Notes: a model not told the origin generated them from the sequence alone. Shown: positions 1 to 36,782, counted from the first letter of the stretch. The stretch is 36,782 nt of DNA from a virus (IMGVR_UViG_3300032253_000017:1-36782), one strand, 5' to 3'. Program-made: numbers and translations.

Positions 1-127
1 GCCATAGCCATAGCCATAGCCAGAGCCATCGCCAGAGCCATCGCCAGAGCCATAGCCATAGCCTTTTTTATCTTTATCTGTGATTACTCTTTCCATTCTT
101 TAGCACTCTCAATAAGAGACTTAGCCT
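1..127. repeat. Terminal overlap: bases 1-127 are identical to 36656-36782 (circular closure; unique length 36,655 bp)
   Basis: Base-by-base comparison of the two ends. The overlap starts inside the GCCAKM hexamer array and ends inside the 121-aa gene. Bases 1-96 (-) duplicate the 5' part of the Gly-X ORF annotated at 36557-36751. Confidence 0.95.
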
Positions 128-449: not shown

Positions 450-506
450 TTTTACTCTCTTTTGTTGGTTTACCGTTTAAGTTGAAATAATAATTACACA
501 AAAAAC

Positions 507-533
507 TTTACACGTCAATATAATTATTATAAT
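507..533 (+). promoter_or_regulatory. Candidate sigma70-like promoter for the rightward arm (TTTACA-N15-TATAAT)
   Basis: Hexamers read in the 117-nt divergent intergenic region 450-566. The 15-nt spacer is shorter than optimal. Confidence 0.25.
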
Positions 534-2571: not shown

Positions 2572-3005
2572 AAGTTAATTTAATAGTTACATCAAATAAG
2601 GCGCTATGGCCTACCGATGATTTAGAGAAAGAAAAGCTATCTAAATTGAAGGTAGGTGAATTCTACACTTGTGACATTAAGCTGAATCAAAACTACAGGT
2701 TGCACTCTAAAATATTCGGGTTCTTTAAGTTTTGCACTCAATATTATTATGGTGATTCTGAACCAAGCAAACAGCAAATTGATTATGTTAGGCGTAAGCT
2801 TACAGTTATATCTGGCTATTACACGCAAGTCTTTAGTCGTGATGGTGATTCGTTTGAGCTTGTAGCTGACTCAATTAGTTATGAGAATATGCCTCCAGAA
2901 GAAAGAGGTATTTATTACAAGAAGATAACACAGTCTGCACTTGATAGGGTTTTTGATAGAGCAACAGATACTAATGTGATTAATCAAGTAATTGCTTGGT
3001 TTTGA
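2568..3005 (+). CDS. Conserved phage protein, tentatively DUF1367-like (nin-region type)
   Basis: 145 aa from ATG 2568. LSKLKVGEFYTCDIKLNQNYRLHSKIFGFFKFC resembles DUF1367 as I recall it. Not verified. Confidence 0.4.
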   Translation: MKVNLIVTSNKALWPTDDLEKEKLSKLKVGEFYTCDIKLNQNYRLHSKIFGFFKFCTQYYYGDSEPSKQQIDYVRRKLTVISGYYTQVFSRDGDSFELVADSISYENMPPEERGIYYKKITQSALDRVFDRATDTNVINQVIAWF

Positions 3006-3151
3006 TTATTTAATAAATAATACTTGATTTTAATTATATTAACGTCTAGTATTATTCATAACGAACTAGAGCAGAGTTTATATAGGTCGTTTTGATATAA
3101 CTTATTGATTTTACTAAGTGTACTTAAACGGAAAAGTAGGAGTGGATAATC

Positions 3152-3340
3152 ATGATTATTTGGCTGAAAACAAAATACTATCAGTGGAGGTTTAGATTCA
3201 TTGATGAAGACATATGCTGTTGCGGAGGTAAAATAACTGGTACATGGTGCGGCTCTCTTTATGGGTGTCGTAGCGCAAAAGAATATGCAGTTACCAAAGC
3301 CGTTGAAGGTGACAAGAATTTTATCAGTCTATCAAAGTAG
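3152..3340 (+). CDS. Hypothetical Cys-rich protein, 62 aa
   Basis: ATG ORF preceded by AAAGTAGGAG. Ends in AAG TAG within the junction motif. Confidence 0.55.
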   Translation: MIIWLKTKYYQWRFRFIDEDICCCGGKITGTWCGSLYGCRSAKEYAVTKAVEGDKNFISLSK

Positions 3341-3354
3341 ACGGAGAGATAACG

Positions 3355-3537
3355 ATGACAGGAAAAATGACACCATCGGCATTCAATAAAGTAGTAGAGC
3401 AAGATATTGAATGGCTAGAGAACATGGTTAGTGAATCGGACAAAGATGGCTCTCTAGAATTTGACCATATTGTAAACACGCTTCGTTATGCCGCCAAACA
3501 ATACAGCGACAATAAAAAACGAATAGACGATTTATAA
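3355..3537 (+). CDS. Hypothetical protein, 60 aa
   Basis: ATG preceded by AAAGTAGACGGAGAGATAACG. Confidence 0.55.
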   Translation: MTGKMTPSAFNKVVEQDIEWLENMVSESDKDGSLEFDHIVNTLRYAAKQYSDNKKRIDDL

Positions 3538-4413: not shown

Positions 4414-4662
4414 ATGAGCAAAAAGAAAATAGAAAAACTCCTAAAAGAAAAAGGTATAGAGGCTGAATCCATTGAGTATCAGCGTGGTTGTCCTGTACCC
4501 GAAGGTTATGCAAGTGGTTGGGATTTGAGTTTTACCGAAAGAACCGAAGATGATGTTTGGTGCGCTGACAGAGAATGTAATTTTGAAATGTTTATGGAGT
4601 TCGGCAGCTTAAAAGAAGTCACTGGCTGGATAGAAACATTACCAACAATTACACAAAAGTAG
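4414..4662 (+). CDS. Hypothetical protein, 82 aa (ends ...ITQK*)
   Basis: ATG preceded by AAAGCAGACGGAGAAAGATT. The last 14 nt, TTACACAAAAGTAG, are identical to the end of ORF 5167-5355. Confidence 0.55.
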   Translation: MSKKKIEKLLKEKGIEAESIEYQRGCPVPEGYASGWDLSFTERTEDDVWCADRECNFEMFMEFGSLKEVTGWIETLPTITQK

Positions 4663-4672
4663 GATTTGAATT

Positions 4673-4846
4673 ATGAGACTAGAAGATTTTAAGAAAAATT
4701 TAAATGAAGCAGGGTGGGATGCAGTTAGTGATGGACAACATCATGGTGTTGAGGATTTACACAAAAAGATATTTCCGTTGGTGGCAGAGCTTGAAAAAGA
4801 AAACTTCGAGCTTTACTGTCAAATCCCTGATGATGAATGCATTTAA
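4673..4846 (+). CDS. Hypothetical protein, 57 aa
   Basis: Hand translation MRLEDFKKNLNEAGWDAVSDGQHHGVEDLHKKIFPLVAELEKENFELYCQIPDDECI. Preceded by AAAGTAGGATTTGAATT. Confidence 0.45.
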   Translation: MRLEDFKKNLNEAGWDAVSDGQHHGVEDLHKKIFPLVAELEKENFELYCQIPDDECI

Positions 4847-5355: not shown

Positions 5356-5363
5356 AGGTGAGT

Positions 5364-5924
5364 ATGCAAGTTGGATATGTAAGGGTAAGCTCTATAGACC
5401 AAAACCTAGATCGTCAATTAGATGGTATTGAGTTAGATAAGGTTTACGAGGAAAAGCTAAGTGGTAAAAGCCGAGAAAGGCCAAAGCTAAAAGAGTGTAT
5501 AGATTATCTGCGCGAAGGTGATACTCTGCACATTCATAGTATGGATAGATTATCAAGGTCATTAAAGGACTTGTTAAACATAGTTCATGAGTTAACCGAT
5601 AAAAATGTAATGGTTAAATTTCACGCTGAGAATATGGAGTTTGCAGGTAAAGATAACCCAATGAGTTATCTAATGCTTGGTATATTTGGATCTATACATC
5701 AATTTGAAATAGCAAACTTAAAGTTACGACAAGCCGAAGGTATAGCAAAAGCGAAAGCTAGAGGGCAGCAGTTCGGTCGTCGTAGCTTAAAAAAAAGGCT
5801 GGTAGAAGAACTTAAAGAAAGAAGATCAAAAGGCGAATCAGTAATTAAAATAGCAGCATCAATGAACATAGGTACATCGACCTGCTACAAATATTTGGAT
5901 GGAAAGCATGATAAAAGCATCTAG
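5364..5924 (+). CDS. Small serine recombinase, resolvase/invertase family (186 aa)
   Basis: The N-terminal catalytic motif is GYVRVSSIDQNLDRQ, followed by DRLSRS. The C-terminal HTH, QFGRRSLKKRLVEELKERRSKGESVIKIAASMNIGTSTCYKYL, aligns by eye with gamma-delta/Tn3 resolvase. ATG 5364 is preferred over GTG 5358. Confidence 0.9.
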   Translation: MQVGYVRVSSIDQNLDRQLDGIELDKVYEEKLSGKSRERPKLKECIDYLREGDTLHIHSMDRLSRSLKDLLNIVHELTDKNVMVKFHAENMEFAGKDNPMSYLMLGIFGSIHQFEIANLKLRQAEGIAKAKARGQQFGRRSLKKRLVEELKERRSKGESVIKIAASMNIGTSTCYKYLDGKHDKSI

Positions 5925-35453: not shown

Positions 35454-35819
35454 TCATACCTGTGGCTCTAAATAATCATTTAAAACTTCCTGCAATTCAT
35501 CGTCAAGATAAAAAACCTCTGCACTTGCTAGTGTTAATATTTTCCTGTACTTGTTAACTTCTGGCATAACCTCAAAAAACAAATACGAGTCGCTATAAAA
35601 CATATTTATTTTGCAATGATTATTAATTGCATCATCTTCCGCCATTGAAATATCATAAGTAACACGTTCCTTTTCAAAGAAAATCATGTATCTCTCTTTT
35701 GTTTTGATAGCGTAGTCATTTTTATATGATAAAGAAATAAAATTATCAGCCTTATCTACAATTGACTGTAACTCACTCTTTGTTTTATCTGACAAATAAC
35801 CTTTTGCATAACCTTTCAT
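35454..35819 (-). CDS. Hypothetical protein, 121 aa
   Basis: ATG preceded by AACAAAGGAGATATAAAC. First ORF after the 737-bp non-coding region. Confidence 0.6.
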   Translation of the reverse strand: MKGYAKGYLSDKTKSELQSIVDKADNFISLSYKNDYAIKTKERYMIFFEKERVTYDISMAEDDAINNHCKINMFYSDSYLFFEVMPEVNKYRKILTLASAEVFYLDDELQEVLNDYLEPQV

Positions 35820-36556
35820 GTTTATATCTCCTTTGTTAAATTTAAAATATAGCAGTCATTAGATACGTTAGTGCATGGATGAGATGTCTTTATCTCAATA
35901 TATACTTAACTATCTTTATGCGCCATTACTGGTAAAACAATATAAATTAGTATCAGCCTAACTTTTCACAATCCTTGTTGGTAGTCCACACCATAAACCA
36001 TGCACAAAACAGCTGTATATCCGCGTATCTAAACGTCAATTTATATTAAGTTGTAACTAAATTGCTATTTTTATTGTTATTAGCTAAACATTAGGGATTT
36101 TTACAAGATACCAATTAACTTGGCAGTATTAATCTGTATAGTGAAATGAGCTGGGTTTCAACAAACCGCATAGAAATATAAAATTGACTAGAAATTATAT
36201 TCATATAGATAATTGACTAGATCACCTATACACCAACTCACTTCACTTATACAGACTATAGAAGCTTTGAAAGGGATTGTGTCTGGGTAGCTTTAGATTA
36301 GCCAACGGACGTGCTGTTAAACTATTTTACGGTTACTAATCAACCAGACACAAAAAAGGGCTTATAAATTCAAACCCTAGCAACTCGGGGTAGATATAGC
36401 ATAAGTGGAAGTTTCCCACGAATGCTAAGACCTGAACTTATAAACCCTAATTACTATATCTATACACAGCTTCCACACTGCAATTACTATTGTACTATGT
36501 TATTCCTTATTTGCAAGTTTAAAGTTTGCGGCCTTTACACCGCGTTAATTTACATA
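35820..36556. other. 737-bp ORF-free, AT-rich, repeat-bearing region (candidate origin / ncRNA / regulatory locus)
   Basis: I tabulated all minus-strand stops, and the longest open stretch is 35 codons. The supplied track has no + ORF of 60 aa or more here. The region contains several direct and inverted repeats, described in the findings. Confidence 0.7.
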
Positions 36557-36751
36557 CTAGCCATCGCCAGAGCCATCGCCAGAGCCATCGCCAGAGCCAT
36601 CGCCAGAGCCATAGCCATCGCCATAGCCAGAGCCATCGCCAGAGCCATAGCCATCGCCATAGCCATAGCCATAGCCAGAGCCATCGCCAGAGCCATCGCC
36701 AGAGCCATAGCCATAGCCTTTTTTATCTTTATCTGTGATTACTCTTTCCAT
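36557..36751 (-). CDS. Putative 64-aa peptide: leader MERVITDKDKK followed by a (Gly-[Tyr/Ser/Asp])27 repeat
   Basis: The ATG overlaps the stop of the 121-aa gene (ATGGAAAGAGTAA), and a GAGAG run lies 9-13 nt upstream. Five of six frames are open through the repeat, so coding status is unproven. Confidence 0.45.
   Translation of the reverse strand: MERVITDKDKKGYGYGSGDGSGDGSGYGYGYGDGYGSGDGSGYGDGYGSGDGSGDGSGDGSGDG
36560..36718. repeat. Tandem hexanucleotide array: 26 x GCCA[T/G][A/C] plus GCC (159 bp)
   Basis: Counted unit by unit: 10 GCCATC, 9 GCCAGA and 7 GCCATA, with GCCATCGCCAGA as the commonest 12-mer. Confidence 0.95.
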
Positions 36752-36782
36752 TCTTTAGCACTCTCAATAAGAGACTTAGCCT

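Follow-up and report, generated by a model that had tools for sequence, protein, structure and literature searches.

The vrRNAs of the VIPR system are encoded by phages as arrays of 9-16 YNNGG pentamers; they are non-coding, their NN dinucleotides are fully variable, and the arrays are hypervariable between relatives (bioRxiv 10.64898/2026.04.26.720920). They have a structured 3′ tail and a partner of the RAMP/RRM type, Vipr, which consists of an RRM core, a G-loop and a thumb (bioRxiv 10.64898/2026.04.26.720920). Borg elements carry fast-evolving perfect tandem repeats that preserve the reading frame and make disordered regions, some of them on Sm proteins (PMC9879509); these repeats are of independent origin, have units of 4-17 aa and varied composition, and are placed N-terminally in the same protein (PMC9879509). 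We analysed a stretch of viral DNA of 36,782 nt (IMGVR_UViG_3300032253_000017:1-36782, hereafter the window) in which a tandem hexamer array encodes a string of Gly-X dipeptides next to a gene for a 121-aa protein of the family DUF6948. That the array is coding sequence and part of a conserved module is, on the comparisons given below, close to certain. The best explanation overall, which we consider likely, is a translated (Gly-X)26-Gly that forms the second gene of a phage two-gene module with DUF6948. The initial annotation was aware of no described phage element of this form, and our literature search agrees, having found no description of DUF6948, of Gly-X peptide strings or of such a two-gene module.

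Like the vrRNAs, the array is a phage-encoded series of short tandem repeats, hypervariable between relatives and built on a conserved GGY with a variable dinucleotide in between, but its unit is a hexamer, its 15-71 units run without interruption within an ORF, NN takes only three states and the partner is Sm-like. With the Borg repeats it shares residence on a mobile element and the frame-keeping encoding of disordered regions; it differs in being one deeply conserved composition class, associated with one partner family across bacterial phyla. Disordered Gly-dipeptide tails that mediate interactions are also found on the eukaryotic proteins SmD1, SmD3 and SmB (Arg-Gly repeats) and LSm4, which resemble the phage pair in joining an Sm-type beta-barrel, predicted in the case of DUF6948, to a low-complexity Gly-X dipeptide tail. 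In the phages, however, X is not Arg but Ser, Tyr or Asp, the chain being acidic; the chain is usually a separate, start-coupled polypeptide of hypervariable length, and DUF6948 lacks sequence similarity to the Sm motifs. FUS-type domains and glycine-rich RNA-binding proteins contain [G/S]Y[G/S] motifs, the latter class combining an RRM or CSD with a Gly/Tyr-rich tail, and here the likeness lies in the Gly/Ser/Tyr composition, in Tyr flanked by Gly, in predicted disorder and in the tie to an often RNA-binding fold, while the phage chain differs as a strict dipeptide repeat with about one quarter Asp at X and no Gln, Asn or Arg, in a tiny stand-alone protein. The Gly-Ala repeat of EBNA1 from Epstein-Barr virus, which is internal to a large protein and affects proteasome processing and translation in cis, is likewise a viral Gly-rich repeat that varies in length and comes from a biased, repetitive nucleotide tract, but it belongs to a eukaryotic virus and has Ala where the phage array has Ser, Tyr and Asp. 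Collagen (Gly-X-Y), RTX (GGXGXDXUX) and silk (GAGAGS) were ruled out by the strict two-residue period, the lack of a hydrophobic position and an Ala content of 0.3%; the database names 'fibroin-like' and 'Lamprin' borne by some Gly-X proteins reflect composition only.

The first and last 127 bp of the window are a direct overlap (1-127 = 36656-36782). The contig was thus assembled as a circle of 36,655 bp, and it is a complete tailed-phage genome. Its plus strand carries early and replication genes between 567 and 7476, namely a weak replication-initiator match (567-986, about 450 bp from the array), NinB, a serine recombinase and NinG/Rap. The minus strand encodes SSB, ERF, an exonuclease, an HNH protein, TerL, portal, a Mu-F-like protein, scaffold, major head protein, tape measure and tail fibre; the leftward unit starts with the 121-aa gene and the Gly-X ORF and continues into SSB, ERF and exonuclease. 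The pair diverges from the replication operon over a region of 118 bp with promoter-like sites on both strands, and the candidate promoter listed in Table 1 sits in this region, which is common to the rightward replication operon. About 700 bp without long ORFs adjoin the array and hold a separate sRNA-like gene. We considered this conserved downstream element of 130 nt as an RNA partner of the Sm-like protein and rejected the link because no other DUF6948 locus has the element and phages without DUF6948 carry it. Rfam gave nothing at the gathering threshold and, at E ≤ 1, sub-threshold miRNA noise only; no tRNAs were found in the window, and PADLOC gave no match for the pair or its neighbours.

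Table 1. Features of the Gly-X/DUF6948 locus in the window, with positions counted from its first base
Feature	Position	Strand	Evidence or remark
DUF6948 gene, 121 aa	84..449	-	Pfam PF22253; 3′ end repeated at 36739-36782 by the assembly overlap
Gly-X repeat ORF	36557..36751	-	Translation; homologous ORFs in equivalent position in relatives
Hexamer array (GGC-[TA/TC/GA]-T)26 + GGC	36560..36718	-	Encodes the repeat; length-polymorphic in relatives
Gly-X start ATG	94..96 = 36749-36751	-	Its TG, together with the G that follows, makes up the conserved Trp codon at the C-terminus of DUF6948
Terminal direct overlap	1..127	.	Second copy of the array's last 63 nt and the ORF start
Sigma-70-like promoter candidate, TTGACG-17-AATTAT with TG	490..518	-	Upstream of DUF6948; consensus match only

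Direct counting and translation bear out what the initial annotation had described for the array itself. The 159 nt of bases 36560-36718 are 26 uninterrupted hexamers (GCCATC nine times, GCCAGA nine times, GCCATA eight times) and a final GCC; Tandem Repeats Finder (TRF) reports the same tract with period 12, 13.3 copies and a score of 236. The minus-strand ORF at 36557-36751 translates as MERVITDKDKK(GY/GS/GD)26G and ends in TAG, so that an 11-aa leader is followed by 26 dipeptides and a last Gly in a product of 64 aa, with a net charge of -8 and a pI of 4.05. Its X residues are eight Tyr, nine Ser and nine Asp. Each residue of the array has a single codon: all 27 Gly are GGC, Tyr is only TAT, Ser only TCT and Asp only GAT. 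The array is open in five of the six frames, stops occurring only in plus frame 3. The ATG (36751-36749, duplicated at 96-94) overlaps the end of the upstream gene as had been claimed; it stands 10 nt ahead of the TAA of the 121-aa gene, inside ATGGAAAGAGTAA, and the two ORFs overlap by 13 nt. The complete array occurs only once in the window, with unique sequence flanking each side, bases 1-63 being merely the overlap copy of its last 63 nt.

The 121-aa protein matches Pfam DUF6948 (PF22253) with E 2.7e-31 and 108 bits against a cut-off of 27; Pfam finds this domain alone, and the PHROG match is to a family of unknown function. DUF6948 proteins have about 100-120 aa, and the family is large, with 7,995 clusters at 90% identity among the candidates scored and at least 2,657 representatives at 50% identity (E ≤ 0.001). 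An AlphaFold2 (AF2) model of the 121-aa protein built with 43 homologues has a pLDDT of 91, and in a Foldseek search of the PDB the listed top 50 matches were all Sm/LSm proteins or Sm-containing snRNP/spliceosome entries, with a probability of about 1.0. The E-values of these matches are only 5e-3 to 3e-2 and the TM-scores 0.4-0.67, and the model has an N-terminal hairpin and C-terminal elements beyond the Sm fold. A PDB sequence search with the DUF6948 profile gave no Sm or Hfq match, only noise, and thus no sign of the Sm1/Sm2 motifs. DUF6948 is therefore predicted to be Sm-like in fold, a small beta-barrel, rather than a proven member of the Sm family, and because the Foldseek E-values are modest we use the term Sm-like only. 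The family is near neutral (median pI 7.7) and not basic, so that it gives no evident sign of RNA binding or of charge pairing with the acidic chain.

The Gly-X ORF follows DUF6948 at nearly all loci where the family is found with enough sequence behind it. It lies directly downstream in 43 of the 44 viral contigs with a DUF6948 relative, and directly after DUF6948 in 62 of the 67 genome or metagenome-assembled genome (MAG) contigs that extend far enough downstream. The bins of the genome loci span more than 15 phyla, and three loci are prophages, as they are located in Mb-sized chromosomes. The search was also run the other way, with a pattern-only scan of viral contigs for (GGN-KMY)8 arrays, which gave 120 loci. 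Where upstream sequence was available, DUF6948 directly preceded 56 of the 70 mixed Tyr/Ser/Asp arrays and just two of the 30 arrays that were pure Gly-Ala/other or Gly-Ser/Gly-Asp. Nine of the 14 mixed exceptions also have a DUF6948-like ORF upstream, five by weak HMM matches and four only by BLAST to those or by motif. Carriers extend over phages and prophages of Pseudomonadota, Bacillota, Bacteroidota (including gut Bacteroides), Spirochaetota, Cyanobacteria, Planctomycetota and CPR bacteria, and cultured examples are the Pectobacterium phage Ymer group, Iodobacter phage phiPLPE, Ralstonia phage NK-7 and Chlorobiaceae phage CV-1-33. In the window, as in phiPLPE and CV-1-33, the pair stands at the head of early or recombination operons, and its neighbours differ by phage, with tail genes in Ymer and terS in NK-7; the sequence 3′ of the array is not common between loci. 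The Gly-X ORF is unannotated in phiPLPE, 'fibroin heavy chain-like' in NK-7 and annotated in the wrong frame in CV-1-33. The pair corresponds to CDS0033/0032 in Ymer, to gp84 and the unannotated ORF in phiPLPE, and to XCO36016/XCO36015 in NK-7. The array breaks assemblies, as shown by the 12 of 44 viral loci that terminate within it. Following the relatives of the 121-aa protein was a check proposed at the outset, and it showed that the Gly-X frame, the ATG overlap and the stop right after the last Gly are kept.

The start of the Gly-X ORF is written into the end of its upstream neighbour. The ATG usually lies 10 nt ahead of the DUF6948 stop (31 of 62 genome loci and most viral loci), and most loci have the Gly-X ORF in frame -1 with respect to DUF6948. 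Of 176 non-identical DUF6948 genes, 149 encode a Trp within the final five codons, 128 of them at the third codon from the stop; the TGG follows an A in 115 and a G in 24 of the 149, which creates ATG or GTG in 93%. In 124 of these genes the ATG or GTG leads in the -1 frame straight into a Gly-X array, and a Shine-Dalgarno (SD)-like 4-mer is present 4-16 nt upstream in 78 of the 124 (63%) versus 11 (9%) in a control window. Both the SD-like motif and the start codon sit inside the DUF6948 gene. The Gly-X ATG of the window itself has no clear SD 4-mer. A stop directly follows the last Gly in 76 of 168 distinct arrays, and many others run into a C-terminal domain. At some loci the Gly-X ORF is in the same frame after the DUF6948 stop or lies tens to hundreds of nt downstream, and in two (L011 and L041) the frame changes within the array.

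These signals bear on a reading in which programmed -1 frameshifting or read-through yields a DUF6948-(Gly-X)n fusion as the main product. The prevailing -1 frame would suit it, as would the natural in-frame fusions at two loci (L024 and P0333). Against it, no X XXY YYZ slippery heptamer was seen on inspection of the DUF6948/Gly-X overlap in the window, the ATG or GTG and the SD-like motif are conserved exactly where independent initiation requires them, and some loci have the ORF in the same frame after the stop, or well downstream of it. We regard it as improbable. On the preferred reading of a separately initiated second gene, the Gly-X ORF would start, in the -1 frame, at the ATG that overlaps the conserved Trp codon near the end of DUF6948, and because the ATG is built into that codon the two proteins are probably produced together from one early transcript.

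Between phages the array is conserved as protein and not as nucleotide sequence. Depending on the phage, Gly codons are GGC, GGG, GGT or GGA and Ser codons TCC, TCT, TCA, TCG or AGC, and Tyr and Asp occur with either codon, so the synonymous change that the initial annotation had proposed to look for is present at both Gly and Ser; the other two frames differ wholly between phages (AMAL..., ATAP..., PGTG...). Lengths, which come from short-read assemblies and may be collapsed, differ in-frame as a coding reading had been expected to require: two loci whose flanks are 97-99.6% identical (L050 and L051) are exactly 126 nt, or 21 hexamers, apart. Close relatives of the window, whose DUF6948 proteins are 86-93% identical, keep the leader ME(R)(V/I)IxDxDKK, and their complete Gly-X ORFs have 34, 76, about 91 and 134 aa. 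Long forms that share the usual N-terminus and are 100% identical over the C-terminal domain come in lengths of 187, 227, 229, 235, 239, 241, 243, 247, 257 and 259 aa, all odd numbers. Kept frame, in-frame length steps and synonymous codon differences in the relatives thus decide for the coding one of the two readings first left open.

Codon uniformity had been held against a gene, an argument that fails: many arrays of the family use codons almost uniformly, others mix them, and the degenerate arrays at four loci (L020, L034, L182 and L231) mix Gly codons and remain Gly-X. The lack of synonymous variation in the window fits concerted evolution, that is, turnover by 6-nt slippage under selection on composition. 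Replication slippage would lengthen or shorten the array by 6 nt, one dipeptide at a time, and such turnover would homogenise the units, hence one codon per residue in many arrays. The peptide had also been called young, which is true of each array; it does not hold for the gene, which spans many phyla. Two features of codon use are not fully explained by slippage alone, the preference for GGC, which persists where contigs have a GC content of just 31-36%, and the identical third base that all X codons share within an array.

The X residues of the 168 distinct arrays, which have 15-71 dipeptides, are Ser at 1847 positions, Tyr at 1688, Asp at 1245, Asn at 120 and Phe at 100. Ser (36%), Tyr (33%) and Asp (24%) together fill 93% of the positions, and each remaining residue occurs fewer than 20 times, Ala 14 times (0.3%) even though the search pattern permitted GCY. 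The mutational neighbours Ala, Cys, His, Val and Pro are excluded from X. The order of residues is close to random (runs test for Tyr/Asp spacing, z 0.15-0.34), and the runs test for even Tyr/Asp spacing gave no support for designed patterning. Selection would act on the proportions, keeping Ser and Tyr at about one third each and Asp at one quarter, with the order near random. A hypermutable microsatellite that is open in the Gly-X frame by chance, and gives a functionless peptide, would fit the extreme turnover, the near-random order and the five open frames. But the array is kept over more than 15 phyla with a fixed Ser/Tyr/Asp composition from which mutational neighbours are excluded, and the upstream gene preserves the start signals at its own synonymous sites, so that a neutral by-product is very unlikely.

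The Gly-X string is also found as part of larger proteins. Besides the direct fusions to DUF6948, there is a long form in which (Gly-X)n stands between an N-terminal helix and a domain of about 150 aa with the invariant FAHGxT...WHHxLTGSCxxGR; this form accounts for more than 7,000 clusters. Gly-X precedes this C-terminal domain at 25 loci or more; the order is reversed at one (L226), and the two are separate genes at another (L240). The domain had no match in Pfam, in PHROGs or, by Foldseek, in the PDB. An AF2 model of a long-form homologue has a pLDDT below 50 over the array, 86 in the N-terminal helix and above 90 in the C-terminal domain, and the array is accordingly predicted, with good confidence, to be intrinsically disordered. 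We also asked whether the window holds a split long form with the ORF at 35454-35819 as third domain, and rejected this, the WHH-LTGSC domain having no match in that ORF or any other ORF of the window.

A short non-repetitive leader before a repetitive core, small size and modifiable Tyr, Ser and Asp would suit a precursor of a RiPP-like modified peptide, or a Gly-rich peptide that is secreted in the manner of a bacteriocin. The flanking ORFs scanned with Pfam, PHROGs and PADLOC, and the genes called beside close relatives, gave no recognisable modifying enzyme, transporter or protease, however; the ORF has no segment resembling a signal peptide, and the array also occurs internally in larger, cytoplasmic-looking proteins. 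There is little probability left for such a precursor.

The resemblance to VIPR raises the further question of whether the array acts, instead of or besides coding, as an RNA, a (GGC-NN-Y)n transcript bound by an Sm-like ring and serving as a VIPR-like guide or an autoregulatory operator. In its favour are the alternation of GGY with NN, the four of six hexamer positions that are invariant within an array, synonymous sites included, and the predicted fold of the partner, which is typical of RNA-binding ring proteins. But the period is 6 and not 5, and NN is far from hypervariable, being confined to TA, TC and GA in the window and to these three at 93% of positions across the family, where GC is nearly missing. 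The array is part of an ORF with a conserved ATG and SD-like motif, often an immediate stop, and in-frame globular fusions, and arrays that mix Gly codons (L020, L182 and L231) stay Gly-X. No RAMP-like protein (RAMP/RRM) was found among the window ORFs scanned with Pfam or PHROGs, the adjacent protein matching Sm/LSm folds instead; no run of four or more YNNGG units exists anywhere in the window, and no gapped self-target outscores shuffled controls. VIPR membership was therefore rejected, the tests of repeat period, of NN diversity, of the partner's fold, of YNNGG arrays and of gapped self-targets all having been negative, and an RNA-level element in general is highly unlikely. A dual-coded array, translated and with its RNA also wrapped by a ring of the Sm-like DUF6948, has a slightly smaller chance still. 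Under that scheme the constant GGC..Y would be held by protein and the variable dinucleotides exposed, as a hexamer-period analogue of the noncontiguous VIPR guide or as a TRAP-like autoregulatory operator, which would explain the invariant synonymous positions and the GGC preference in AT-rich phages.

Iterons are units of about 17-22 bp, spaced, and conserved as DNA together with a Rep protein. A DNA-level element beside the AT-rich, ORF-free region, either iteron-like binding sites as proposed in the initial annotation or part of a replication origin, would resemble them in having direct repeats in tandem close to a replication gene and to AT-rich DNA, given the weak initiator homologue and the adjoining stretch without long ORFs; but iterons are far longer than the 6-bp units seen here, the array is conserved in amino acids and not in nucleotides, it travels with the 3′ end of DUF6948 through unrelated contexts (the tail genes of Ymer, terS of NK-7) and not with replication genes, and the ORF-free region holds its own sRNA-like gene, so this reading has almost no probability left.

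Returning to the two-gene module, the product of the second gene would be an acidic disordered chain in which Tyr residues may serve as 'stickers' and Gly and Ser as spacers. A functional partnership of the Gly-X chain with DUF6948 is probable. The two are inferred to be co-translated, expressed early and physically associated. The chain would usually act in trans with the Sm-like protein and, in some phages, in cis, fused to DUF6948 or to the second conserved domain of about 150 aa. What the chain does is a more tentative matter. Our best guess is a length-tunable multivalent tail for binding, scaffolding or decoy in early host takeover; action by stickers and spacers, as a scaffold or as a decoy is a possibility to which we give limited credence, and we are a little more doubtful of a ribonucleoprotein condensate or multivalent decoy that the phage would make from the pair, with a valence tuned by slippage. 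The roles put forward in the initial annotation, as DNA mimic, disordered decoy or modified-peptide precursor, are likewise guesses.

A widespread gene has thus escaped annotation, been placed in a wrong frame or received names taken from silk and lamprin. It offers natural cases of a disordered protein that is locked in composition and free in order, of concerted evolution that wipes out synonymous variation despite selection at the protein level, of a start codon and ribosome-binding site that act as synonymous-site constraints in an upstream gene, and of a repeat that breaks assemblies. If the pair is a tool for host takeover or anti-defence, it would represent a new class of phage effector, with cultured models at hand.

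The first 127 bp of the window are repeated directly at its end (1-127 = 36656-36782). The contig therefore assembles as a 36,655-bp circle, and the copy of the Gly-X array (the hexamer repeat encoding alternating Gly and Tyr, Ser or Asp) that lies at 1-63 is an artefact of this overlap. Across the arrays of all loci, Gly is encoded by GGC at ~75% of positions, a dominance that persists in contigs with only 31-36% GC, and within most arrays the X codons share one third base, either all T or all C. The Gly-X register shifts frame inside the arrays of contig loci L011 (two compensating shifts) and L041 (one shift); these changes could be assembly errors or real.

Annotation of the Gly-X gene in public records is unreliable. 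The ORF is missing from the annotation of Iodobacter phage phiPLPE (L046), the frame annotated for gene25 of Chlorobiaceae phage CV-1-33 (L048) is wrong and reads MAMAMAL..., the product in Ralstonia phage NK-7 (L047) is labelled 'fibroin heavy chain-like', and one Gly-X protein from a MAG bears the name 'Lamprin'.

Neighbours of the pair formed by the Gly-X ORF and the gene for DUF6948 (Pfam PF22253) were noted in other loci. Directly downstream of the array in L010, and read in that locus only, is an ORF for a CspA-like cold-shock protein (~4540-4750); such an ORF after the array is probably common to the GC-rich relatives L011-L013. In L053 and L054, from close relatives of the window phage, a gene for an AcrIF11-like ADP-ribosyltransferase, an anti-CRISPR family, lies at 2879-3366, ~1 kb downstream of the pair.

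The window also holds an sRNA-like gene, whose conserved body spans ~130 nt; RNAalifold predicts a long stem with three compensatory pairs. Intergenic copies with 79-85% identity occur in Pseudoalteromonas phage H105/1, Vibrio phage NF and Vibrio phages 1.122.A/B. Rfam has no family for the window element, which outside the window shows no linkage to DUF6948. Among the window ORFs scanned there is a serine recombinase homologue and no tyrosine integrase.

Features of the window outside the Gly-X/DUF6948 pair
Feature	Position	Strand	Remarks
sRNA-like gene	36350-36516	minus	promoter-like site, conserved body, terminator hairpin
Promoter-like TTGCAA-16-TACAAT of sRNA-like gene	36516->36489	minus	
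Terminator hairpin and T-run of sRNA-like gene	36378->36357	minus	
Serine recombinase / DNA invertase homologue	5358-5924	+	PHROG 125, E 4e-54

One Gly-X subclass has conserved ends, MF.PVG-(Gly-X)n-GT(V/I)STR.RR (L091, L110, L112, L120, L141 and L152). In four of them (L091, L112, L120 and L141) it comes after a protein that is DUF6948-like but divergent and carries the motifs VVVVDRGWIFAGDV and RAVHVFKW.

In the long form (L037, L105, L159, L166 and L230-L241; proteins P0121-P0273), an N-terminal helix, ME..I..FL, is followed by (Gly-X)n and a ~150-aa domain. This family, without a match in Pfam, PHROG or PDB folds, comprises >7,000 clusters and is frequent in phages of Bacteroides and Oscillospiraceae. 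The ~150-aa domain carries the invariant motifs FAHGxT and WHHxLTGSCxxGR, which may form a His/Cys metal site.
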